DNA of 64,000 nt from Acidobacteriota bacterium. GTDB lineage: Bacteria; Acidobacteriota; UBA890; WLXD01. The position numbers and the translations under genes were made by a program. Below, in pieces: positions 41,189 to 55,809 of this stretch (position 1 is the stretch's first letter; every line of letters begins with the position of its first letter). The stretch covers positions 384,001 through 448,000 of the forward strand of contig CAXWPH010000014.1 of NCBI GenBank assembly GCA_963666055.2. Reading direction: 5' to 3'. The notes below the pieces were generated by a model. It saw nothing but the letters and a program-made list of their open reading frames with translations. It was not told the origin of the DNA and made no database searches.

Positions 41189-42400
41189 TCAGTCGTAGCG
41201 CAACGCCTCGATCGGGTCGAGCCGCGAGGCCCGACGCGCCGGGTAGAAGCCGAAGACGATGCCGATGAGGGCCGAGAAGCCGAAGGCCAGGCCGACGGAG
41301 TTGGCCGACACCAGCATCTGCCAGCCGGCCGACTCGGCCATTTGCTGCGAGGTGAAGTAGCCCAGGGCGATGCCCATCGCGCCACCGAGACACGACAGCG
41401 CGATGGCCTCGATGAGGAACTGCAGCTGGATGCTGCTGCGGCGCGCCCCGATCGCCTTGCGGATGCCGATCTCACGGGTGCGCTCGGTAACCGACACCAA
41501 CATGATGTTCATGATGCCGATGCCACCCACAATCAGGCTCACCCCGGCGATGCCGGCGAGCAGGAAGGTGAAGCTCTCGGTGGCCGACTGCATGACGTTG
41601 AGAAACTCGGTTTGCCGGGTGATCGAGAAGTCGTTTTCGACCCCCGGGCGCAGCCGATGCTGGCGTCGCAGGATGCTCTCGATCTCCGCCATCGCCATGG
41701 TGAGGTGCTCTTCCGACAGCGCCTCCACGGTCATCGAGCTGATCAGCTCGGTGCCGAACAGCCGCCGCTGGGCGGTGGACATGGGGATGATGATGATGTT
41801 GTCGCGCGAGAAGAACGAGCTGCCGCCCTTCTCGCCCATCACGCCGATCACCTCGAAGGCGATGCTCTGGATGCGCAGCTCCTCGCCAATCGGATCGATG
41901 TTGGGCGGGAAGATAGTGGTGGCCGCCTCCGAGCCCAGCACCGCCACCCTTCGATGGCCCTCCTGCTCGGTGGGGGTGAAAAAGCGCCCCGCGGCCAGCG
42001 GCCAGTTCTCCATACGCAGGTAGTCGGCCCAGGTGCCGGTGATCGAGCTGGTGCCCTGGGTGTTCTTCCACTCCACTTGAACATTGTTGCGCGACAGCGA
42101 CGGCACCACCGCCTCGATCGAGGTGGCCTTCTGCTGCACCGCGTACGCATCTTCGACCTTCATCTGCGCGCCACGGTGCGAGAAGCCGCGGCGAAAACCG
42201 GAGCCGGCGCGCACCGTCAGACGGTTGGCACCCAGGCCAGCGAGCTGGTCTTGCACCGATGCCTGCGCCCCCTCGCCCAGCGCCACCATGGTGATCACCG
42301 CCGCCACACCGATGATCACCCCCAACATGGTGAGCATCGAGCGCATCAGGTTGGTGCGCAGCGAGGTGAGCGCCACGATGAGGATCTCGAAGCCGAGCAT
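41189..42400 (-). CDS. MacB-like ABC transporter permease
   Basis: RSMLTMLGVIIGVAAVI; VGGIGIMNIMLVSVTERTREIGIRKAIGA; LDPIEALRYD. Confidence 0.95.
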   Translation of the reverse strand: MLGFEILIVALTSLRTNLMRSMLTMLGVIIGVAAVITMVALGEGAQASVQDQLAGLGANRLTVRAGSGFRRGFSHRGAQMKVEDAYAVQQKATSIEAVVPSLSRNNVQVEWKNTQGTSSITGTWADYLRMENWPLAAGRFFTPTEQEGHRRVAVLGSEAATTIFPPNIDPIGEELRIQSIAFEVIGVMGEKGGSSFFSRDNIIIIPMSTAQRRLFGTELISSMTVEALSEEHLTMAMAEIESILRRQHRLRPGVENDFSITRQTEFLNVMQSATESFTFLLAGIAGVSLIVGGIGIMNIMLVSVTERTREIGIRKAIGARRSSIQLQFLIEAIALSCLGGAMGIALGYFTSQQMAESAGWQMLVSANSVGLAFGFSALIGIVFGFYPARRASRLDPIEALRYD

Positions 42401-42420
42401 TAGCGCGCTCTCCTAGGCCA

Positions 42421-44100
42421 TCAACGACGGCTCGTGCCGGGGATCGAGCTGAAGCGCGAGAAGCGGTCGCGCAACGCCTGCTGCGACATCAACAGCGACG
42501 TGGAGGGCAACAGCACCACCTCGTCGCCGGGCCGCAGCCCGGAGACGATCTCGGTGAACTCCCAGTCCTGCACACCCATCATTACCTGGCGCGGCGCGAT
42601 CTGGCCGTCGGCCATCACAAACACCACCGCCGGCTGCGGCGCGCGACCGATACCGAACGCGTCCATCGACACGGTGTTTCCGGCCCGATCGTTACCCCCT
42701 GTCCCGCCGTCGAACCCGCCGTCGCCATGGTCATCGCCGCCGGGCCCTCCACCGCCGGGCCGGCCGCCTGAGCCGCCGTCGGGACGCGAGTTGCCACCCC
42801 CGCGGTTGCCGAAGCGCGACCCCATCTGCTGACGCATCTGGGTACGCTGCTTGTCGGTGAGGTTGTCCATGTACTTGCGGCGCTCTTCCTGGCTCATCGA
42901 GCGCATCTTGCTGAAGTCGAAGTCCTCTTCCTTGCCGTCTTCCTTGTCGCCGGCGCCCGAACCAGCGGAGTCCGCGCCGGGTTGCGCAACGGCGTTGCCG
43001 CGCTCCCCCGGCCCCGCCTCGTCGGCGTAGGCGGCGTTGGCCACCAAACCGCCGGCCGGCGGCTGGCGATCGTCGTCGGCCATGTTCCTGCTGCCCGAGC
43101 GCAGCTGATCCTCATCGAACGGAATGCCCAGCAAGCCCGCCACGGTGCCCGCATCGCGCATCGTCTTCACCGACTCGTTGGGCACCGCGATCACCTCATT
43201 GCGCCGGTGGATCACCACCTCCACATCGGCGTTCATGCCCGGCAGCAGCAAGCCGTCGCGGTTGGAAACGCGCGACAGCACCGGAAACGTCGTCACCTGG
43301 TTCTGCACCACCGCCTGCGGCTCGATCTTGATCACCTCGCCGATGAACGTGCGCTCCGGATACGCCTCCACGGTCATCTCCACCGGCAATCCCGGCTTCA
43401 CCCGGCCGATGTCGATCTCGTCGACCAGGGTGCGCACCTCCAGCACCGTCAGGTCGGCCATCTCCACCAGCGTGGTGCCGCCCTGCACGCTGTTGACCGA
43501 CGACTGGATGATCACGCCCTGCTCCACCGTCTTGCTGATAATCGTGCCGGCGCTGGGCGCCCGCACCGTGGCGTCGTCGAGGCGCTCCTCGCGCAGCTTG
43601 ATCTCCGCCTGGGCGCGCAGCAGGCTGCCCTTGGCGGTGGTGTAGTTCTGCTCCGAGGTATCCAGGTCCTGCATCGAAACCAGGTCCTGCTCCGACAGCG
43701 CCTGGGCGCGGTTGTACTGCCGCTCCGACACATCCAGACGAACCTGGGCCGACTCCAGGTCGGCCTGCGCCTGCGCCAGCTCCTGATCGAGCGTCTCGGT
43801 GTCGATCTGGGCAATCAGCGCGCCGGCTTCAATCCGATCGCCGAGCTCGGCCGGCATGCTGAGAATCTCCCCCGCCGCCTTGCTCTTCACCTGCACGATG
43901 CGCACCGGCCGCAGCGTGCCGGTGGCCGACACGCTCACCGTAATATCGCGAATCTCCGCCGCTTGAGTAGGAACCTCACCCAGCCCCTCCTCCTCCTCGG
44001 CAGCCTGGCGCTCCTGCCAGTACATCCAGCCGAAGTAGCCCACCCCGGCCACGATGGCCAGCGTGACTACCTGCTTGAGTAGCTTGATGACAGTCTTCAC
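42421..44100 (-). CDS. MacA-like efflux periplasmic adaptor with a Gly-rich insertion
   Basis: N-terminal anchor; VSATGTL, VKSKAAGEI, VRAPSAGTI, LLPGMNADV, EIVSGL. Confidence 0.92.
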   Translation of the reverse strand: MKTVIKLLKQVVTLAIVAGVGYFGWMYWQERQAAEEEEGLGEVPTQAAEIRDITVSVSATGTLRPVRIVQVKSKAAGEILSMPAELGDRIEAGALIAQIDTETLDQELAQAQADLESAQVRLDVSERQYNRAQALSEQDLVSMQDLDTSEQNYTTAKGSLLRAQAEIKLREERLDDATVRAPSAGTIISKTVEQGVIIQSSVNSVQGGTTLVEMADLTVLEVRTLVDEIDIGRVKPGLPVEMTVEAYPERTFIGEVIKIEPQAVVQNQVTTFPVLSRVSNRDGLLLPGMNADVEVVIHRRNEVIAVPNESVKTMRDAGTVAGLLGIPFDEDQLRSGSRNMADDDRQPPAGGLVANAAYADEAGPGERGNAVAQPGADSAGSGAGDKEDGKEEDFDFSKMRSMSQEERRKYMDNLTDKQRTQMRQQMGSRFGNRGGGNSRPDGGSGGRPGGGGPGGDDHGDGGFDGGTGGNDRAGNTVSMDAFGIGRAPQPAVVFVMADGQIAPRQVMMGVQDWEFTEIVSGLRPGDEVVLLPSTSLLMSQQALRDRFSRFSSIPGTSRR

Positions 44101-44267
44101 CGCCCCACCTCGAGGAATGGAGATTGTGCGTCAGGAGAGGAAACCCCGATGACAATAGCGTGCCTGGTGGCATGGTGGGGGCACAAGTTAAGAGGTGTAA
44201 AGAGTTGTAAAGACGAGCACAAGTCCCCACAGCTCTCCGTCCACAAGGATGAGCTGGTCGGTCTTTC

Positions 44268-46987
44268 CTACTCAAGTCCTCGCGGAGCTCCTTGCCAAAC
44301 AGCCCCGGCCCAACGGAAGGGCTCGCTAGGGTATCGTTCTCGCAGCGCCCTTTTCGCCGTCGCGAGGCTGGCCGCCCCGATTCTGGTCCGCCAGCGGAAT
44401 AGAAGAGCTGTGCGAGCTCGCCAGCAGTGCGCTCGTCCAGTGGCCACAGGCTACCGACTACGTTGCGGCTCCCCGCGGCCATGAAAGCATCGGCGAGGCT
44501 CGTCGGAAGCCCGCCTAAGTCGCCCGCGCCGAGAATCGTCGCCCGCGCTGTGTCGCAGCCGAGGAGCACCACCGTCGCCCCATCAAGATCGAGCGCAGCG
44601 ATCTCAGCGAAACTCAGGAAGCCGTTGTGCGAGGCGGACGAGCGCAACGTTAGCCCACCCGCATCCTTTCCGGCGCTCGGCGAACGTGAATGACCGCCGA
44701 AATGGATCAGGCTGCTCTGCGGCGCATGGTCTACGAAGGCTGCCTCCGTGGCATCGGCTCCCAGGAATGCCCGACCCAAGGTGCGCACGAGAATACCTTC
44801 CACTTCGGGCAAGGCAGTTGCCCTCCCGCTCGGTATGAACGCCACGGCCAAATGTCCGCGCGGCCGGCGATGCATCGAACGATCCAGGTCAGAAATCGTA
44901 CGCGAGCGGGCGAATACGATCCCATCCCCGTAAAAGCTGTTGACTGGCGCCATGGAAGGCAACGAGTCCAAAGGGAGCGTTGCCAACCCTCCACCTGGAA
45001 GAACAATAAGAGTCTGTAGCCCATCGAGCCAACCTACAGCCTCGACTTGATGCATCGTCAATCGAGCAAGTTGCCTTCCGAGCAGTCTCCAGGCGCTGTT
45101 CGGACGGGCGGTGCTTATGCTCTCAACCCAAAGATCAGCGGCACCCTGAATCTCAGCGGCCGATGCTGCCAGCCGCATCGCATGCACTTTCGACGACCGT
45201 ACTAGCCATACCCAAGCCTCAGTACCCAAGAACCGAAACGTCACTACTGCTTCGTCTGCCTGCAGATGGGTTTGGAGATGAGCCAATCGGATCGACCGTT
45301 CGTCGCGAAGGCTACTTCGGGATCGATCAAGAGCCTCTAATCCCGCCGCCCACCTCCCGGCGTCAAGCTCAAGGCGTGCCCGACGCCGTCCGAGGCCTTC
45401 CCACGCGGACAAGGCACTCAGCCGGGTCGCAAAATCACCTACCTCTGCGATCCATTTCCCGAGTTCCACCTCTGCCCTGGCGTAGGCCTGCACCGCGAAC
45501 TCCGGTCGCCCCGCTTTCTCGGCTAACACAGCATCCGCCGTTGCCTGCGCCAAGGGGAAGGGGGCGCCGCTCGACGGAAGATTAGAGACAAGATCCGGCG
45601 AGTCGAGCTCCCACCAACCCAAGTCGGCGTCGCCGATCTCCAGTTTGGTAAGTGTGACCAGCGTGCGTGCAGAATCCGACGCACGCATCGCGCTGAAGTG
45701 CGCTTTGCGCAGATGATCGACTACCTCTGCTTGCCGAGAGGAAGCCGACGCGAGGCGGGCGCGCTCGAGCCAGATCCGTGTTTCGAGTTCCGCCGAAGAC
45801 TTGGTCTCGCCGAGTGCCGCCAGCCGCTCGCTCGCCTCCGCGGTTCTGCCAAAAGCACGCAATGCCGCGACTCTCATGAGTTCAATACGAGTCGCGGCGT
45901 CATGGCGCCCCAGCCGGTTCGCAGCCCATGCGCCGCGATCGAGTGTCTCCTCCAACGCTTGCCAGCGACCGAGAAAAAGGAGCAACGGTGCCGCGACATC
46001 AGCGAACCGCCCGATCAGAATGGGTGAGCTGTCGTGTCGTGGGATCGCGGCGAGCCGCTCGTAAATGGCAATCGCTGGCTCCAATTCGCCCCTACTCCAG
46101 AGCTCGGCAAGACGCTGCAGCCGGCAGTCGACAGCTAGCTGCGGGGCAGTTCCAACGAGCGCATCGCAGACTGTCGGGAAGCCGTCGCGATCCGCGAAGG
46201 ACTGAAATGACTGAACGAGGCTCAAGTACACTCCCCGCCGATCGCCGGCAACAATCGATCGGCGTCTCGCCTCGCGTGCGAGCGTCGACGCACGTTGCAT
46301 CGAGCCTTTCGCGGAGTCGATCGCGGCGACGACAGTTAGATAGTCGGCGAGCCCAGAGACGGACCCCGACGCCACAGCTTCGCGCAACCCCTCCCACGCC
46401 AGCTGGGCGCCGCGCTGCGGTAGCGCCGCCGATACTAGCCGGACGAACCGGTAGGAATGGGCATGCTGCTCGGGGTACCCGAGATGAATCGACTCGGGTA
46501 GAGCATCCCCGAGCTTCGCGAACGCATCAACAACGCTGGCGGGGCCGCTCCTAAGGAGTCCGGCCACCGCAGTCAACACTACGGCGTGCCGGCGCGCGCG
46601 CGCGTGCGATCCAGGACGCAGAGCAAGCATCGATACTTTATGTTCATGTCCGAGCTCCAGCGACAGTTCGGCCAGCGCTGCGCGAACGGCAATGCCGGGG
46701 TGCCGCCTGTTCATCGCCAACGCAACCTGATGCGCCTCTGCTAGCAACCCGATATCCGATGCCACCGACGCGTACCCGAGGCCTGCTCGCAGATTCCGAG
46801 GCTCCCGGATCATGGTGTGTGCGTACTTCGACAACGCTCTCCGCGACTGGCCGCGCTGTCGAGCCCGAGCCGCCTCCTCTATGGCTGCGCTTCCGGGCAA
46901 GGTCGGCAGTGCACTGCCCCACAACACCGGAAGATCGACTCGCGCGCCACCGCCGTCGGATGCTCCTGCAACGAAGAGGAGGAGCAC
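44268..46987 (-). CDS. TPR-like/helical repeat + CHAT (caspase-HetF) protease; -1 frameshift at CCCC 44375-44378
   Basis: Catalytic LIHFGGHS and VVLLGCDT, AFMAAGSRNVVGSLWPLDE; adding one base restores SLATAKRALRERYPSEPFRWAGAVWQG..* ending at 44268; start uncertain. Confidence 0.85.
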
Positions 46988-47027
46988 AGCGAGGTATAGA
47001 TTGCCGACCGTTGAGGAACTCCTCCAG

Positions 47028-47720
47028 CTACCGATAGCTCATTTCCGTTTCCCCCATTCCCGAACGGCCGACGCGCGAGTGGCCAGCCCAAGCGTCGACC
47101 GCCCAGTACACTCGCGGCGTTCCCGAACGAATCGATAGATCAATCGCGGTGGCTCGTGACGTGAGCGTTCGCTCGGCCAACAGCCGACCTTCACTGTTCC
47201 AGGCGCGCACGGTATAGCGATCTACGCCCGGTACTGCACGCCAAACCAGCCTCAAGGTCTCCGTCGCGGGCTCGAAAGTCGCGGTGGCTATCAACATCAT
47301 CGTTTGCCCACGCAGTTCGCCACCCTGAGGGAGCTGCACCGGTGTTGCCAGGAAGGCCCCGATGCCCACGCCGAGCCCCGCGAGGATCGCGGCCACGACC
47401 CGGCGAGGCCGGTTCCGGATGAAGGAGGGTTGAAGGGCTGGCGAGACTTCGGGCCGTCCGTGCGGAGGGCGGCGAGGTGGCCTGGCCACTGGTGGGCCGA
47501 CGCTGCCAAGCAGTTCGACACCTGGCTCTGCCGTCGGGTCGAAGATCTCGTCAGCACATGTCCTGAGCAGCGTCGCAACGGCATCGAGTTCGCCGGCAGT
47601 TCGAATGCAGTTTGGACACTGACTCAGGTGGCGCAGACCAACGGGATCGGAGGAGAGAACCCATTCGGCCAACATCTGGGGCTCTGGGCACGCCGGGGTC
47701 CGCGATGCGGTCGAGCTCAT
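47028..47720 (-). CDS. Zinc-finger (ZAS) membrane anti-sigma factor with an extracytoplasmic beta-sandwich-like domain
   Basis: CP..HLSQCPNC (HxxxCxxC); TM VVAAILAGLGVGIGAFLA; GELRG; L.W..VPGV..Y.V; overlaps the sigma stop. Confidence 0.78.
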   Translation of the reverse strand: MSSTASRTPACPEPQMLAEWVLSSDPVGLRHLSQCPNCIRTAGELDAVATLLRTCADEIFDPTAEPGVELLGSVGPPVARPPRRPPHGRPEVSPALQPSFIRNRPRRVVAAILAGLGVGIGAFLATPVQLPQGGELRGQTMMLIATATFEPATETLRLVWRAVPGVDRYTVRAWNSEGRLLAERTLTSRATAIDLSIRSGTPRVYWAVDAWAGHSRVGRSGMGETEMSYR

Positions 47721-48598
47721 CTGAGCGCCTCCATCAGTGCCGGCCGGGTGCCAAAATCGCCAAGTCGGAGGCCCGCAGCGAGCAGGTCTTCGCGAAGTGC
47801 AGCCAAGCCCCTCGCCTGAAGCTCATACACCTGCTTGTAGTTCCCTATCTCGAGAAATACGGCGATCTTTCGCGCCGACATGCCGTGGCGGAATCGTAGA
47901 CTCACAGCGGTCCGCTCGGCGTTCGACAGCCTCCCTATGGCTTCGCGGAGCACAACCACGGCACGCTCCTGGGTCACCAGCTCCTCCGGGGCGACCGTGG
48001 AGACGGCCAGTTCGCGAACTCTCTTGGGTTCTCCGTCCCGCGGCTCCGCGTCCAGCGACACCATGCTGCCGCGTCCCGGGCCAGCGAGGGTCAACCGCCA
48101 GTGATGATCACGGCTGAGCGTCTCGCGGATGACCGCTAGACTCTCCTCTACGTCCGTTTCCGTGCACTCCATCCCGTGATTGGTCCGCAACATCTGCGCA
48201 ACCTCATGGGCCGAGTACCCCTCCCAGTAGTAGTAGCGAAACACCATACGACGTACCTGCGGCAAGGCCTGGACACCTAGGTACATGCGTCGTCGACCAC
48301 GCGAAGTCCGAATCCACTCGCGACCGAGATTGAACGTCACGGCAGCCAACCAGGTCGTGAACTTGCAAGCGCCGCTAGGACCGCTTCCCCTGAACTGCTT
48401 CACTCGCCTGCAATCCTCGGCCCTTAGCCGTTCGCAGATATGAGCGTAGATCTCCATTCGCTCGTCGTATTGCCGTGTCAAACGCCGGATACAAGCGAAC
48501 AAGAACGGTGAAAACTCTTCGATGAATGGTTTCCATGCCGCCGCGCCGTGACGGAAAACCTCCGCAACCGCATCAGGCAAGGCGGCCGGTCGATACAT
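47717..48598 (-). CDS. Atypical sigma-70-family (ECF-like) factor with two region-4-like segments
   Basis: Region 2 KFTTWLAAVTFNLGREWIR; LPQVRRMVFRYYYWEGYSAHEVAQML and LSNAERTAVSLRFRHGMSARKIAVFL; start uncertain (frame open to 48832). Confidence 0.82.
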   Translation of the reverse strand: MYRPAALPDAVAEVFRHGAAAWKPFIEEFSPFLFACIRRLTRQYDERMEIYAHICERLRAEDCRRVKQFRGSGPSGACKFTTWLAAVTFNLGREWIRTSRGRRRMYLGVQALPQVRRMVFRYYYWEGYSAHEVAQMLRTNHGMECTETDVEESLAVIRETLSRDHHWRLTLAGPGRGSMVSLDAEPRDGEPKRVRELAVSTVAPEELVTQERAVVVLREAIGRLSNAERTAVSLRFRHGMSARKIAVFLEIGNYKQVYELQARGLAALREDLLAAGLRLGDFGTRPALMEALR

Positions 48599-48967
48599 GT
48601 CTCCCGACGATTCCGCTCTCGCATCGCCGACAGGGTCGCTCGCATTTGCCCGCTTCGGACTGGCGCGCGACACGCCCCGGCACGGTGCAGTGGGATCTGG
48701 ATCTTCAGTCAGAGGTTCAGTCGGCACCGGGTAACTCGCCTTCGCCTGGGGTGCATCACGCCCGTCGTGACCCTCATCAGAGATGGACGGCCATCGAGCC
48801 AATGGTTCTCCGTAGAAAGCAGCTAGCGCCACGGATTCCGACCGATTCGGCCACTATTACATGCAACCCTTCGAGGCACCGGCGCCACTTACAACCGAAT
48901 CGTCGGGTAGCCGCGCCTGCGGAGCGCCGCGCCCGACCCATGAGACTCTCCCTGCAAGGTGGCGACG

Positions 48968-49498
48968 ATGCGACTCGCTAGATTGACGCGGCTCCCGCAC
49001 ATCGGCCTGATCCTCGGACTCTTGACAGCCCCCGCGTTGGCACCAGCTGCAGAGCCCGACGCCGCGAGCCGGCTCTTCGAACGCTTCAAAGCGCTCGAAG
49101 GTAGCTGGCAGGCCGAAAGCACCGCCGGCTGGAACGAGGTGAGCACCTTCGAGATCATCGCGCGCGGCTCAGTGGTGATGGCCTCCGTGTCGTTCCGCGA
49201 TGCTCCCGACCGCAAGATGGTGACGATGTACTACCTCGACGGCACGGAGCTGGTCGCGGTGCATTACTGCGAGGCTCGCAACCAGCCGGCGCTGCGGGCC
49301 ACCGAGCTCGATGCCGAGGCCGGCACGGTTACCTTCACGTTTGCCGGTGGTGGCAACATTCCGACGCGCGATTACGGGCACATGGACAGCGCGGTCTACC
49401 GCTTCATCGACGAGGACAGCTTCACATCGCGCTGGACTTGGTTTCAGGACGGCGAGGAACAGTGGCTCGAAGATGTCGAGTATCGGCGCATCGACTAA
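48968..49498 (+). CDS. Secreted hypothetical protein (beta-barrel/lipocalin-like)
   Basis: Signal peptide; FERFKALEGSW; MVTMYYLDG..HYCEARNQP; GHM. Confidence 0.75.
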   Translation: MRLARLTRLPHIGLILGLLTAPALAPAAEPDAASRLFERFKALEGSWQAESTAGWNEVSTFEIIARGSVVMASVSFRDAPDRKMVTMYYLDGTELVAVHYCEARNQPALRATELDAEAGTVTFTFAGGGNIPTRDYGHMDSAVYRFIDEDSFTSRWTWFQDGEEQWLEDVEYRRID

Positions 49499-49514
49499 AC
49501 GCGACCCGCGACGA

Positions 49515-50045
49515 GTGAGCAACGACGAGGCGCCCGACCGCTTGCTCGTGGAAGCCTATCTGCGCGGTCGCTCGGAGCGGGCCTTCAGGCAACTGTACCG
49601 GCGGCACACGAGCTCGCTGTATCGGTTCGCGGTGCTGCGAGTGGGTGCCGACAGCGCCGAGGATGTGGTGCAGGAAACCTGGATTCGGGCGGCGCGCCAG
49701 CTCCACCGGTTCCAGTGGCAGGCCTCGTTGCGTAGCTGGCTCACCGGCATCGCGCTCAACTGCTGCCGCGAGGTCTGGCGGAAACAGCAGCGTTCACCTC
49801 CGCCAGCGGCCGCGAGCCAAGCTCTGGCACGCGGCGAGAGTCTGCGTCTCGATCTGGCGCGTGCGGTGGAGGAGCTGCCGGAGCGCGCTCGCGAGGTGCT
49901 GCTACTGCACGACGTTCAAGGCTTCACGCACCTGGAGATCGGCGCCACTCTCGGCATCGAGGCGGGCACCTCCAAGAGCCAGTTGTTGCGGGCGCTCCTC
50001 GACAGCAGCCCCCTTGACCAGAAAGGAACACCCCGACATGGATGA
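49515..50045 (+). CDS. ECF sigma factor
   Basis: AFRQLYRRH, AEDVVQETW, SLRSWLTGIALN, LHDVQGFTHLEIG..GTSKSQL; probable GTG start at 49515. Confidence 0.92.
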   Translation: MSNDEAPDRLLVEAYLRGRSERAFRQLYRRHTSSLYRFAVLRVGADSAEDVVQETWIRAARQLHRFQWQASLRSWLTGIALNCCREVWRKQQRSPPPAAASQALARGESLRLDLARAVEELPERAREVLLLHDVQGFTHLEIGATLGIEAGTSKSQLLRALLDSSPLDQKGTPRHG

Positions 50046-50604
50046 TCAGCTGAGTGGAGAGGAGCGTGAGCAGCTCGCGGCAATCGGCAAGCACTTGCAC
50101 CCTCCGGCCGGGTTGGAAGACCGAGTGGCGGCGTCGCTGCGCCAGCACAAGCTGATTGCGGCGCCACCGGGATGGTCGCCACTTTGGCGCCTGACCGCGG
50201 CGGCAGCAGCGGCGACCGTGGCATTCGCGGCGTTCGCCCTCGGGGTGCGATACGAACGCTCCGGCCCGGCGCCGGCGCCCGAAGGCCGCCGCTTCCTGCT
50301 CATGCTGCTGGAGCCGGCCGACGCGCCGTTGCCCGCCGCCGAGGAGGCAGCGCGGGTTGTCGAGTATCGCAACTGGGCCGGCGAGCTGGCACAAGACGGC
50401 ATGCTGGATGCCGGCGAGAAGCTCGCCTGGGACGGCAATGTGGTGGGTGGCACCGAAATCCCGGTGGCGGCCGCTGTCGAGCGCGTCACCGGCTTCTTCA
50501 TCGTCCGCGCCGAGTCACTGGATGAAGCCCTGGGGCTGGCGCGCGCATGCCCCCATGCGGTGCACGGCGGCCGCGTGGAGGTGCGCGAGATCGAGCCCAC
50601 CTGA
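50038..50604 (+). CDS. Putative membrane anti-sigma factor with a C-terminal YCII/DGPF-like domain
   Basis: PPAGLEDRV, TM, then RFLLML..Y..WA.EL..GEKL..GFFIVRAESLDEA..A..CPH..GG.VEVREI. Confidence 0.8.
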   Translation: MDDQLSGEEREQLAAIGKHLHPPAGLEDRVAASLRQHKLIAAPPGWSPLWRLTAAAAAATVAFAAFALGVRYERSGPAPAPEGRRFLLMLLEPADAPLPAAEEAARVVEYRNWAGELAQDGMLDAGEKLAWDGNVVGGTEIPVAAAVERVTGFFIVRAESLDEALGLARACPHAVHGGRVEVREIEPT

Positions 50605-50831
50605 GCCGCCAGGTGGCCGATAGATGCCCCGCTCCTCCGGGGTCGGATCAGCGGCGCTGCAGGGTGCTCGTGCGAGAATGTCGAAGCCGTTCGCCGGTTC
50701 TCCGCGACAGAGAGCGCACTCCAGATCGGAATCTTGCGTCCAGGCTCGTCTATTAGGGCGAGTGGATCCAAACCGGCGGCGACACGTCCCGGTCGGGACC
50801 CCTGCGGACCAACCTCGGGGAGATCAGCGCC

Positions 50832-53060
50832 ATGCCAAGAGCTCATACAGAGGAGCCATTCGAGCGCAGCTGCGATGCGCTCGTAGTTCAGGTCGGTCGG
50901 GCGGAGCCGGACGACGCCAGCGCCCTGCGACTTGCCCGCCAGGTGGTTCGCCAAACGCTGCGCGGCAAGTGGCGCGTCCAGCCGCTCGGTGCGGGCTCGC
51001 GGGACTTCGAGGTGCGCCGCGCTCGCGCCGACAAGAGCATCCGTATCTCGACCGCCTGGAACCTGACCAGCAAGCTCAACGCGCACCGCGACGTCATCGC
51101 GGCGGAGCCGGCATTCGTGCTGCCGGGTCACGCGCCGGACGAGGCGCAGGTAGGGAAACTCTTCACGCAGGCCGAGCAGCTGGCAGCGAAGAGCAGCGGC
51201 GACAATGCTGACCTGCCCTGCGCCAAGGTAGACAACTGGGCCATCAAGTTGGTCTCCGCCGACGACGCCTGGAACCTGGTGCCGACCGACCCCAGCGGCC
51301 GCGCCATGGGCAAGGGCGTCATCGTCGGTCACCCGGATACCGGCTACACGCAGCACCCGGAGATCCTACCGATCAAGGCGCAGGGTGGGCGGCTTCGCGT
51401 TGCCGATGGCTACGATTTCGAAGACGGCAAGAAGGACCCACGCGACCCTCTCGAAGACGGCGTGCTGGAAAACCCGTCGCACGGCACCAGCACCTCGAGC
51501 GTGATCATGAGCGGTATCGGTGCGCCGGTGGCGAACGCCATGGCAGGCCCGGCAGCCGTAACCGGGGTGGCGCCGCTCGTCGAGCTCGTCCCGATTCGGG
51601 TGACTACGAGCGTCGTTCTGCTGTCGTTTAGAAACCTTGCCAAGGGCATCCTCCACGCCACGGCGAAAGGTGCCCACGTGATCTCGATCAGCTTGGGCGG
51701 GCCGCTCCGGTCCGGCTTTCTCGAGCGCGCCATCGAGCACGCCGTCGACAGCGGCGTCGTCGTTCTGTCCGCCGCGGGCAACGTATGGCCCTGGGTCGTC
51801 TACCCGGCGCGGTTGGATCGAGTGATCGGTGTCGGCGCCTGCAATTGCGAACGGGAACGCTGGTCGAAGTCGGCGCGCGGCTCGAAGGTGGATGTCTCCG
51901 CCCCGGGCGCGGCGGTGTGGCGGGCGAAGACCGAGAAGGCCCACTCGGGTAGCCCGTTCGACGTGAAACCCAGCTCGGGAACGTCATACGCGGTCGCAGT
52001 GGTGGCGGGCATCTGCGCTCTATGGCAGGCGCACCATGGCCGCAAGCGGCTGGTCGACAAGTACGGCCTCCCCCGCTTGGCGGCCGTGTTCAAGGAGATT
52101 CTCATCAATCATGGGGTCGATACGCCGCCGGGCTGGAACACGACCAAGGACGGCGCTGGGATCGTCAACGCCGTGAAGGTGTTGAGCGCCACGCTACCGA
52201 ATAGGGCGCCGGCAGGCGGGATGAAGACATTGGCGGGCGGCGGCGCACCGCCGCTCAGCGGCCGGCTCGAGCCCTTCGTGCCGCACTTTCCGGACGTCGA
52301 TCGTGCCGGGCTACGCGCGGCGCTGATCGACTTCTTGTCGACCGACGAGACCAGCCTCGGCGCAGTGCTCGCCAGGCACGGACACGAGCTGCTGTTCCAT
52401 GTGACCACCAATCCCTCGGTGCGTGAAGCGCTCGGCGCGAAGGCGACCAACAAGATGCCGAAGCGCAAGACGCCCAAGAGCGTCCTGGCGGCGGACAAGT
52501 CGTTCACCGACTGTCTATCGCGCGGGCTGCGCAAGCAGATCGGATCGAAGACTTCACCGGGGCCGAGCCCGGCAGCCCCCAACGGCACGGCGCAGCCATC
52601 AGGCGGTGGCACAGGGGGAAGCCCGCCTGCATCGCCAGGCTCGATGAAGCTGATCGTGACCAACAGGAAGGCGATGCGCAGCAAGCACGGCAACGCCGGC
52701 TGGAAGAGCATCGCCGGGGCAATCCAGGCGATGGTCGCGGCCGACCGCGCACGAGGCATTGCCACCCGCTTGGTGGCGCTCGACAGCGTTACGCGTGCCG
52801 CGGTCGAGGGGATGTCGGTGCGCGACGAGATTGCCTCGCGCGGTGGGCGCTCGCTGTCGGTAGCGGCGGTATACGGAGCGCTCGACCGCTTGGCGCGTGG
52901 CGGGCTCGTGCAGTCGCGCCTGTCGGAGCCGACCCCCGAGCGGGGCGGGCGATCCAAGAAGCACTTTCGCATTCGGGCGGCCGGGGTTCGGGCGCTGCGC
53001 AAGGAGCGACAGCTCATGGAGCGCATGTGGAAGGACGTCAAGCTGACGGCCCAGCCATGA
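50832..53060 (+). CDS. S8 subtilase fused in frame to a truncated second domain and a PadR C-terminal fragment (probable deletion chimera)
   Basis: DTG, HGT, AAGN, GTS catalytic motifs; from ~52809 Pad[29 protein letters not shown]. Confidence 0.85.
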
Positions 53061-55809
53061 AGCAGCGCCGTTCGACCCCGCCTCCGCCATCCGGTCGCAG
53101 CGGGCTGGGACTACGCCCGGAGCCGGGGTCGGGGCCGCGCCCGCCGCGGCTCGCCAGCCTGATTCTGTCGCTCGCCCTGCACCCGGACGATCGCGACTTC
53201 ATTCTCGGCGACCTCGAGGAGGCGTTCCGGCGCCGCGCCCGAGTCGGGCGAGCCGCCGCAATCCTCTGGTACTGGGCGCGGCTGCCCGCGAACACGGCAT
53301 CGAGCTTGCGCCGGCGTGCCGTGGGCAGGGCTAACCCTTCGGGGCGAGGACATTCCGAACAGCGGAGAGAGAGACAGTCGATGACCGACGTGCTCATGCA
53401 GGACTTCATTATTTCCGCCCGCGCGCTGCGGCACCGTCCGGGCTTTGCGCTGGCGGCGGTTCTGACGCTGGCCCTCGGCATTGGTGCGAGCACGGCGATC
53501 TTCTCGGTGGTGCGGGGAGTGCTGCTGAAGCCCCTGCCCTATCCGCAGGCCGAGCGTATCGGAGTCCTGTGGCACGAGTTCGGTAGCGCGCCCAGAATCT
53601 GCCGCTCGTGCACTCCCTGGACTTGCGCGACTATCGGGATCGCACCGAGCTTTTCGAGACGTTCACCATGGCCAGCGGGTTCGAGGCGATTCTGGATGAA
53701 GACGACAACCCTGAGATCGTCGACGTGGCCAACGCGGAGGCTGGCTTCTTCGAGTTCTTCGGAGCATCGCCGATCCATGGTCGAACGTTCTCACGAGAAG
53801 ATGACTCGCCCGGCGCCGCACGTGTGGCGGCCCTCAGCCACCGACTCTGGGTGCGCCGCTTCGGGTCCGATCCCGCCGTCATCGGCGATGTGATCGCGGT
53901 GAACGGGACGGCCATGGAGGTCGTGGGGGTCCTACCGGCGACGTTCCGGTTGATTCTGCCACCCGAGGCACTCTTCCTGCGGGATCCCGACGTGTGGACC
54001 ACGGCGCGTATCGACGCCGCCAACGAGCCAGCCCGCAACGTCACCTTCTACACTGGCTTCGGTCGACTCAAAGCGGGCGTGACCTTCGAGCAGGCGCAGC
54101 AGGAGCTCGACGTCGTCGAAGCCCAGCTGAAGGCCGAGCATCCGGTGCACGCCAGCGCCAACCTGCAAGCTCGCATCGTTCCCCTGCTGGAGGATGTGGT
54201 CAAGAACGCCGAAGCGACACTGTTTCTACTGTTGAGCGCGGTGGGGTTCGTGCTGGTGATCGCATGTGCCAACGTGGCGAACCTGCTGATCGTACGAGGC
54301 CATGCTCGACGGCAGGAGTACTCGCTCAGGACCGCCCTCGGTGCCAGGAAAGGCAGCCTCGTGCGGCTGGCCCTCGTCGAGAGCGCGATACTGGCCGGGG
54401 CCGGAGCCGCACTGGGCGGACTGCTGGCCTGGGGGTGCGTGGCGGCCTTGAAAGTGGTGGGCTCGGCCAGCGTGCCGCGGCTCGAGTCGGTGCAGATGGA
54501 CGGCATGGTGCTGCTGTTTGCGGTCGGCGTAACGGTGGGAAGCGCCACGCTGTTCGGCCTTGTTCCGGCGCTCAGGACAACGGCGAGCGATCCGGCAATG
54601 GGGTTCGCCCGCTCCACTGCTGGACGGCGCGACCGACGCTTTCGAGACATGCTGATCGTCGGGGAGATCGCCGCAAGCCTGATGCTGCTCATCGGCACCG
54701 GCTTGATGGTCAGGTCGTTCGCCGAGCTGATGTCGGTGGAGCCCGGCTACTCCACCAAGGGCGCTCTGACCTTTCGCGTGTCACTCCCCGCCGAACGGTT
54801 TGCCGACAGCGAATCGCGTCGTGCCTTCGTCGACGAGCTGTCCACCGGCCTTTGGCGCCTTCCGGGGGTGACCGGGGTGAGCGCTATCGACCAGCTGCCG
54901 CTGACCGGCTCGGGGCCAATGCAGCCTTTCGCCTACGACGAGGAGACCGCCTCCAACTGGGAGAGCGTCAGTGCCGATGCGCGCTCCGTCGTGCCCGGAT
55001 TCTTCGAGGTCGTCGGCGCCGAAGTCGTTTCAGGCCGCCTCTTCGACAGCACCGACCTCGGCGGATCCGCCGTGGTGATCATCGACGATCAGCTTGCCGA
55101 GCGGGCTTTCCCCGGCCAGGAAGCGGTTGGTCAGGCCCTCCAGGTCGGGCCGAATGCGGCGCCAGAGGAGCAGCGCTACACCCAGGTGGTCGGGGTGGTG
55201 TCGCATCTGCGCCTCCACGATCTGAGTCGGCCGCATAATATGCAGATCTACTGGCCGATGAACGGCTCTCGCCGCTTCAGCGTCATCGTCCGTACCTCGG
55301 GTGATCCGAACGCGCTGGTCTCTGGAGTGCGGGCCGAAATGAGCCGACTCGCCCCCGGGGCTCCGGTCGAGGACATCCGCGCCATCGAAGAGCTGGTAGG
55401 TGACGCGCTCGCGCCTGCCCGACTGGCCCTGGGAGTCATGACCGCGTTCGGCATGGTGGCGATGCTGCTGGCGGCGGTAGGCATCTACGGCGTGCTGTCG
55501 TACGCCGTTGCGCAGCGCACCCGCGAGATCGGCATTCGCATGGCGCTGGGACAGAAGCCCGCCGCCGTTCGTTGGGTCGTGCTAACGGAGGGAGGGCGCC
55601 TGATCGCAGTAGCGGTGGCACTGGGCCTGGCTGGCGCGGTTGCGATGAGCAGGTTGGTTGGCACCCTGCTGTACGAAGTGACGCCGGTCGACCCGCTCAC
55701 CTACCTCACCATGACCGCAGTGCTGGTGTTGACCGCCGGACTGGCCTGCTGGGTGCCAGCGGGTCGGGCTACGCGCGTTGATCCGCTCATCGCCCTACGG
55801 GGCGACTGA
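53057..55809 (+). pseudogene. ADOP-type duplicated ABC permease with a frameshift near 53588 (real or sequencing error)
   Basis: [45 protein letters not shown]; one added G joins the two ORFs. Confidence 0.88.

Follow-up and report, generated by a model that had tools for sequence, protein, structure and literature searches.

A conserved sigma factor, membrane zinc anti-sigma and TPR-CHAT protease cassette in Acidobacteriota as a candidate split variant of the DdvS-DdvA switch

We analysed a window of 64,000 nucleotides from an Acidobacteriota genome (GenBank assembly GCA_963666055.2, contig CAXWPH010000014.1, positions 384,001 to 448,000), the minus strand of which carries three overlapping or abutting genes that code, in this order, for an atypical sigma factor, a zinc anti-sigma factor (ZAS) with a single transmembrane (TM) helix, and a large protease with TPR and CHAT regions (Table 1). 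A first-pass annotation made from the letters of the window had described these genes as tightly linked, and our analysis bears this out; the protease is the only CHAT found in this genome. The best reading of the results is that the cassette is a real, conserved and undescribed split variant of the DdvS-DdvA switch of Myxococcus xanthus, a two-protein form of the mechanism proposed for DdvA. Below, G000 denotes the genome of the window, other G numbers compared genomes, L numbers loci and P numbers database proteins; published systems are described as in the available parts of the cited sources.

Table 1. Features of the cassette and its immediate surroundings, in window coordinates
Feature	Position	Strand	Basis or remark
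Candidate autoregulated promoter of the extracytoplasmic function (ECF) type	48786..48811	-	-35 hexamer 48811-48806; -10 GGCCGTC 48792-48786; function inferred
Sigma factor gene, atypical sigma-70 family, 336 aa	47717..48727	-	Pfam, profile comparison, shared start codon
Anti-sigma gene, single-pass, 230 aa	47028..47720	-	ZAS, TM, Arg-Gly (RG) linker, FN3-like domain
CHCC zinc anti-sigma motif (C11, H31, C35, C38)	47607..47690	-	Zinc binding predicted from motif
Predicted TM helix of anti-sigma	47340..47405	-	Helix 98-123 in orthologue model; hydropathy
Arg137-Gly138, candidate P1-P1' cleavage site in flexible periplasmic linker	47307..47312	-	Invariance, enrichment, low-confidence linker
Periplasmic FN3-like beta sandwich	47043..47300	-	Foldseek matches to FN3 domains, root mean square deviation 2-3 A; profile matches fn3-repeat proteins
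TPR-CHAT (separase/caspase-like) protease gene	44268..47035	-	Frameshifted; start codon uncertain; Pfam CHAT
Signal-peptide-like N-terminus of protease	46961..47035	-	Hydrophobic stretch, then S-DGG; hydropathy
Invariant Glu, first helix of caspase core	44804..44806	-	Position of the S1 acids of Arg-specific clan CD proteases; equivalence by topology
Catalytic His codon	44690..44692	-	Invariant, 12/12 orthologues
Catalytic Cys codon	44555..44557	-	Invariant, 12/12 orthologues
Genuine frameshift	44375..44378	-	Final 35 residues lost; a 133-residue tail that extends into macA takes their place
Conserved direct repeat upstream of macA	44197..44212	-	10-base period; 7/8 CHAT-macA intergenic stretches

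The sigma factor is atypical, as the first-pass annotation had stated, in that an extra sigma4-like helix-turn-helix (HTH) lies between sigma2 and sigma4: Pfam r4_2 is matched twice, and the middle part of the protein matches sigma4 in profile comparison (hhalign probability 62%, E 8e-5). Its start had been placed at an ATG at 48598, but this codon is present only in G000, and the gene more likely begins at a GTG at 48727 that is common to G002 and G003. A conserved promoter-like motif falls inside the longer sigma reading frame. In alignments of the sequences upstream of the sigma gene, GGCCGTC was present in 14 of 15 stretches of about 460 nucleotides each, 13 times at the aligned position, with a partly conserved hexamer 16 bases ahead of the CGTC; it would be expected 0.09 times per stretch, the 15 stretches being related to each other. 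A CGTC-type -10 consensus is characteristic of ECF sigma factors, and the element would thus fit autoregulation of the ECF type. A weight matrix of this motif run over G000 gave 190 hits above a score of 12, from which no targets could be named and no regulon read, since nearly all of the top 40 hits are intragenic and score higher than the native site. A second sigma type, 280 aa long and with an insertion as its middle part, was encountered with a split CHAT cassette in G009 (L035:3487-10931) and beside a fused DdvA-like protein in G033 (L083:4976-5815).

The three parts earlier ascribed to the anti-sigma, namely the ZAS domain, the TM helix with a GELRG linker and the outer beta domain, were all recovered by motif and by a structural model of the G003 orthologue. 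This model consists of a three-helix N-terminal domain, one TM helix, a low-confidence linker that contains the GELRG (predicted local distance difference test score, pLDDT, 55-61) and a high-confidence beta sandwich. The window protein has no Pfam match, and several of its relatives match Pfam zf-HC2. Zinc motifs vary among the orthologous anti-sigmas, with two in tandem in a sister family and in G005, one in the genus of the window and none in G006 and G009, and the TM-RG-FN3 arrangement is kept across this variation (L037, L040, L041, L042, L043, L205). There is possibly a link between the two sigma4-like domains of the sigma factor and the tandem zinc motifs of some anti-sigmas.

The protease gene of the window matches Pfam CHAT with an E-value of 7e-24, and its intact orthologues span about 920 codons. 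When the intact G002 protein was modelled (mean pLDDT 71), its best fold match was DdvA (E 1.6e-12), followed by Csx29 and separase. The description of this protein as a helical-repeat CHAT with a His/Cys dyad and a hydrophobic N-terminus is accordingly upheld. Arg-specific clan CD proteases have an acidic S1 pocket (alpha1, L4, L5). In CHATs linked to anti-sigmas, alpha1 and L5, as placed by topology, are also occupied by acids, which are common to CHATs generally; the corresponding acids bind the P1 Arg in MALT1 and gingipain (PMC4357240).

Conservation of the neighbourhood is equally clear. Of the 26 genomes of the order, many of them incomplete, 12 contain the sigma subfamily; the anti-sigma follows the sigma factor in all 11 cases examined, and the order sigma, anti-sigma, TPR-CHAT holds in 10 of the 12 genomes, the exceptions being G021, whose contig stops some 1 kb past the sigma gene, and G005, which has lost the CHAT. 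Six of the seven records holding this sigma factor are titled Acidobacteriota, and of 16 metagenome loci at least 9, several of these being duplicates, contain all three genes, and 4 end early. Beyond this subfamily, cassettes of the same kind accompany other sigma types in the phylum, the ectodomain being FN3, TPR or of another type; in two cases the anti-sigma and CHAT are fused as in DdvA. A stop codon separates the anti-sigma and CHAT reading frames in every orthologue examined; a programmed frameshift joining the two at this stop was considered and rejected, the codons before the stop, compared by eye, varying among the genus members and permitting no re-pairing. Two further arrangements were noted. 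In G038 a soluble variant (L094:4315-9299) combines a sigma factor, a TPR-CHAT with no signal stretch, a TM-less zinc-finger-like protein with R-S in its linker and a subtilase-like gene, a neighbourhood resembling that of ECF54. Divergent genes for a Ser/Thr kinase, a response regulator or both adjoin the sigma gene in the sister family (L037:4152-6736, L041:2-742, L043:2715-3449).

The block had also been reported to be richer in A/T than its neighbours. In overall G+C content (GC) this holds only weakly (0.61-0.65 for the trio versus 0.63-0.68), and it is clear at third codon positions (GC3 of 0.65-0.70 versus 0.79-0.91), where the trio ranks in the bottom 2-7% of 1,657 open reading frames, called roughly from part of the genome. 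Recent horizontal transfer is an unlikely cause, given that GC3 is equally low in the G002-G004 orthologues and that the locus is syntenic across the order. The ratios of nonsynonymous to synonymous substitution rates were 0.10 for the sigma factor, 0.33-0.35 for the anti-sigma and 0.17 for the CHAT, indicating that the genes of the trio were under purifying selection until recently.

The most distinctive feature of the anti-sigmas is the RG dipeptide on the outer side of the membrane. All 12 anti-sigmas that were found via their neighbours, at 19-61% identity, have both R137 and G138, and so do orthologues that have lost the zinc cysteines (G006, G009, L066, L067). In a wider set of 28, collected with a profile that itself contains the motif, the R is present in all and the G in 26. 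We compared anti-sigmas encoded beside CHATs with other zinc anti-sigmas from the same 41 genomes. The linked set held 30 anti-sigmas beside CHAT profile matches (66 matches, many lacking usable flanks), leaving out G004, the soluble G038 protein and a truncated G040 protein; one member was dropped when the TM finder failed. The controls came from 90 loci picked by Pfam zf-HC2 from 235 matches, of which those lacking the motif, a TM helix or 50 outer residues were dropped, as were, by hand, one CHAT fusion and three proteins with two TM helices; their separation from CHAT genes was checked by eye. An RG within 50 residues of the TM helix was present in 22 of 29 linked anti-sigmas versus 8 of 53 unlinked ones, and, once 10 orthologues had been removed, in 12 of 19 versus 8 of 53, with a p value of 1.6e-4, which, the sequences being related, overstates the difference. 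The control dipeptides GR, RA, RP, PG and EG showed no such difference. The stricter pattern hydrophobic-R-G, chosen after seeing the data, occurred in 17 of 29 versus 1 of 53; the first-pass annotation had predicted plain RG. The proposal that the RG motif is conserved is thus upheld, together with its specific enrichment in CHAT-linked anti-sigmas. The dipeptide recurs ahead of unrelated-looking ectodomains and in both fused DdvA-like proteins examined (L083, L099), which argues that it is not a folding residue of the FN3 domain. Within the CHAT itself an N-terminal RG was seen in only 4 of 12 orthologues, and none is invariant after the Cys. Linked anti-sigmas that lack RG often have, by eye, R-D, R-E, R-S or R-V just ahead of the ectodomain. 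Six linked CHATs possess a hydrophobic C-terminal anchor (L036, L039, L048, L049, L050, L095); five of these have 'PLRDD' at L5, and four of the five pair with an anti-sigma that has aromatic-R-D/E and not RG, a pairing that could possibly reflect enzyme-substrate covariation.

In the window itself the protease gene is disrupted. The frame shifts after Gly886, where the G run is one base shorter than in G002. The first-pass annotation had asked for this indel to be verified. A reading as an assembly error is contradicted by contigs of several runs: those of X1, X2 and X3 span 43900-48900 and those of X7 and X5 cover the site, all with no gap, amounting to support from up to 4 samples of 2 studies, one of them possibly the source of the assembly. 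No RNA dataset containing the locus was retrieved. The part lost comprises the last helix and the near-invariant last strand of the model, with Trp, Ala, Gly, Val, Trp and Gly positions kept by at least 90% of orthologues. Given the removal of these conserved elements, the protease copy of the window is probably inactive. Comparable damage is widespread in the family: of seven members with any trace of the cassette five are broken, and G003 and G009 are intact. G002 has an apparent one-base insertion in the sigma gene; in G004 an insertion sequence-like element replaces the sigma gene and most of the anti-sigma gene; G005 has lost the CHAT, and its anti-sigma is cut back to the zinc domains, with TM, RG and FN3 also gone, possibly in one deletion; and G006 has an in-frame stop within FN3 that recurs in L057, L069 and L070. 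Damaged CHATs were also found among database proteins, with P0009 fused to a transposase, P0051/P0054 split and P0052 shifted before the Cys. The four complete trios of the sister family (G011, G014, G019, G022) look intact.

From the observed anatomy, conservation and enrichment we infer the catalytic and regulatory steps of a possible pathway. It is fairly probable that the TPR-CHAT, predicted to be exported, is a site-1 protease that cuts the neighbouring anti-sigma after Arg137, ahead of RseP, the gene for which is present in the genome. In the resting state the ZAS domain would hold the sigma factor at the membrane and the FN3 domain would block RseP, as the DdvA ectodomain does. A periplasmic signal bound by the TPR part may align the His/Cys dyad, upon which a cut at R/G would shed FN3 and leave a stub of about 10 residues; RseP would then cut the TM helix, and the released sigma factor would transcribe at least its own operon. 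The first-pass annotation had envisaged release by CHAT cleavage of the anti-sigma. Given a membrane anti-sigma like DdvA, which is used with RseP, one cut would not free the sigma factor, and a second, intramembrane cut is presumably needed.

The enrichment of RG would be explained equally if the dipeptide were a docking or pseudo-substrate motif that occupies the S1 pocket of the CHAT with no productive cleavage; the CHAT might then serve as a sensor or as a bulky cap, the anti-sigma becoming accessible to RseP or another protease once the CHAT is released, or the anti-sigma might restrain the protease. The Arg of the gingipain prodomain offers a precedent (PMC4357240), and in DdvA the dyad is in a resting state with the ectodomain as a steric block (PMC11506125). 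However, His and Cys are both kept in 30 of 31 linked CHATs, and the sole exception, G008 with a His to Tyr change, is paired with an anti-sigma that has no RG, albeit a single case. The small residue after the Arg also fits a scissile bond, and we regard docking as unlikely. The position of the CHAT downstream in an operon behind a candidate autoregulated promoter, and the existence of self-cleaving anti-sigmas (PMC11506125), would agree with a CHAT that is an output of the sigma factor and, once exported, acts on other targets; processing of the anti-sigma at RG or close to it would then fall to an unrelated protease or to the anti-sigma itself. This is decidedly unlikely in view of the rarity of RG in anti-sigmas of the same genomes with no CHAT neighbour (8/53, and 1/53 for hydrophobic-R-G) and its persistence in fusions where anti-sigma and CHAT form one chain.

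At the N-terminus of the protease lies a hydrophobic stretch that ranks first or second among the hydropathy windows in 10 of 11 orthologues and is followed by DGG in 9 of 12. Export is thus predicted, and, in keeping with the earlier proposal, enzyme and outer part of the anti-sigma are both predicted on the periplasmic side. A CHAT acting in the cytoplasm in the manner of Craspase, on the cytoplasmic linker of the anti-sigma or on the sigma factor, would accord with the start codons of the window genus described below and with the soluble variant and its TM-less neighbour in G038. This hydrophobic stretch, the C-terminal hydrophobic anchor added by several other linked CHATs and the conserved motif on the outer side of the TM helix oppose it, and we consider it very improbable.

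Several observations nevertheless count against site-1 cleavage after Arg137, in addition to the kinship of the sequences compared. Export is predicted from hydropathy, and it is uncertain in the genus of the window since no ATG, GTG or TTG precedes the signal-like stretch in 4 of 4 members (47035-46987; L031, L032, L033), the only shared start candidate being an ATC at 47035 that overlaps the last codons of the anti-sigma gene. The alpha1 Glu is family-wide (27 of 27 CHATs) and so is no pointer to Arg specificity, and Csx29 enzymes cleave after Met or Leu (PMC10028731). Seven of 29 linked anti-sigmas have no RG in the 50-residue window, and several of the counted hits are off-position. The activity of the DdvA CHAT was never observed, and its dyad mutants had no phenotype in the absence of the signal, according to the available part of that report (PMC11506125). 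Lastly, the repeated loss of the cassette in the family of the window shows that the system is dispensable there.

Downstream of the CHAT lie macA and a permease gene with no ATPase domain, in which the first-pass annotation had seen a possible target of the sigma factor. This is not supported: upstream of macAB stands a conserved repeat of its own, the motif found upstream of the sigma gene is missing there, and macAB is not adjacent to the trio in G011, G014, G020 and G022. The direct repeat is likely part of macA's own promoter, outside the switch, and resembles a response-regulator box. No terminator-like site is listed between CHAT and macA, and read-through would be possible. The view that the system is independent of CRISPR is supported, there being no CRISPR array in the window and a cas1 on another contig; PADLOC run on 13 proteins returned only generic kinase and permease hits. 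On the other strand, 0.5 kb away from the trio, a second ECF sigma factor with a TM/YCII-domain partner is encoded (window 49311-50604), as it is in G002 and G003. Farther on, an ABC-permease gene is split over two frames (window 53027-55809) and a subtilase gene runs in frame into a PadR domain (50832-53060). Contigs of X1 and X2 match 41501-54900 with no indels, so both are genuine, and they are consistent with wider gene decay in this genome.

A broader proposition, which we advance tentatively, is that CHAT proteases may act widely as site-1 proteases of bacterial sigma factors, a class so far unrecognised, in which one Arg-Gly-type linker code just outside the membrane, before interchangeable ectodomains (FN3, TPR, other beta domains or a fused TPR-CHAT), marks the cut in split and fused systems alike. 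If true, this would amount to a separase-like protease-substrate pair in the periplasm, and a large protease family, most of it uncharacterised, would gain a substrate and a role outside CRISPR. For DdvA, a single chain and the one characterised anti-sigma with a periplasmic TPR-CHAT, CHAT self-cleavage within residues 129-140 has been proposed, the authors stating that validation will be possible only once the signal is found (PMC11506125). The split form supplies enzyme and substrate as two proteins and a candidate bond that can be named, which makes cleavage testable in trans, the frameshifted window copy being unsuitable for expression; the RG of the fused relatives L083 and L099 would, in turn, predict the position of the self-cut in DdvA-like proteins.

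Our literature search retrieved no split cassette, and subscription papers and supplements may hold one. The first-pass annotation had drawn its comparison with type III-E CRISPR. The type III-E Craspase, encoded in a CRISPR locus together with Cas7-11, Csx30 and Csx31, shares the TPR-CHAT fold and a protease that relieves a sigma inhibitor by cutting a flexible loop, as predicted here; in it Csx29 cuts Csx30, a soluble anti-sigma that holds CASP-sigma, in the cytoplasm and upon RNA activation via Cas7-11 (PMC10028731). In contrast, the anti-sigma of the window has a TM helix, its CHAT has a signal-like N-terminus by hydropathy, and the trio lies outside any CRISPR locus in the window, Cas7-11 not having been searched for genome-wide. 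ECF54 of Actinobacteria likewise has an ECF sigma near a TPR-CHAT gene, but, in the available supplement of PMC7826278, with no anti-sigma and with a carboxypeptidase-regulatory-like protein at +1 plus a subtilase, where the cassette described here has a TM zinc anti-sigma at +1. The SAVED-CHAT / PCaspase / PCc-sigma system of Haliangium (bioRxiv 10.1101/2023.06.23.546230) also clusters a CHAT with a sigma factor; it is a CRISPR cascade activated by cyclic oligoadenylates (cOA) in which a second caspase cuts the sigma factor itself, and the available text describes no membrane zinc anti-sigma. These three are more distant than DdvS-DdvA. With DegS/RseA/RseP and RsiW (cited in PMC10028731 and PMC11506125) the cassette shares a single-pass class I anti-sigma and predicted two-step proteolysis, but here a clan CD cysteine protease encoded in the same cassette would act at site 1.

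The closest system is thus the membrane anti-sigma DdvA with RseP, DdvA being also the best fold match of the protease. As in DdvS-DdvA of M. xanthus (PMC11506125; PDB 8rot, 8rw5), an ECF-type sigma factor is encoded directly upstream of an N-terminal CHCC zinc anti-sigma three-helix domain (zinc binding predicted), a single TM helix with a flexible linker is predicted, and a separase-type TPR-CHAT with His/Cys, as modelled from the intact G002 protein, would lie in the periplasm; rseP is available, and DdvA that has lost its TPR-CHAT part is removed by RseP (PMC11506125). DdvA is described as a dimer whose active site faces the linker. Table S7 of the same report, as available, has no Acidobacteria entry among the DdvA homologues and lists two M. 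xanthus DdvA paralogues that are also outside islands of CRISPR or cyclic-oligonucleotide-based antiphage signalling (CBASS) genes. The cassette differs in that a gene of its own encodes the TPR-CHAT, apart from the anti-sigma, which has FN3 as its last domain; the sigma factor contains an extra sigma4-like HTH, no CBASS/CRISPR genes of the kind under DdvS-DdvA control lie nearby, and a specific candidate scissile bond is conserved.

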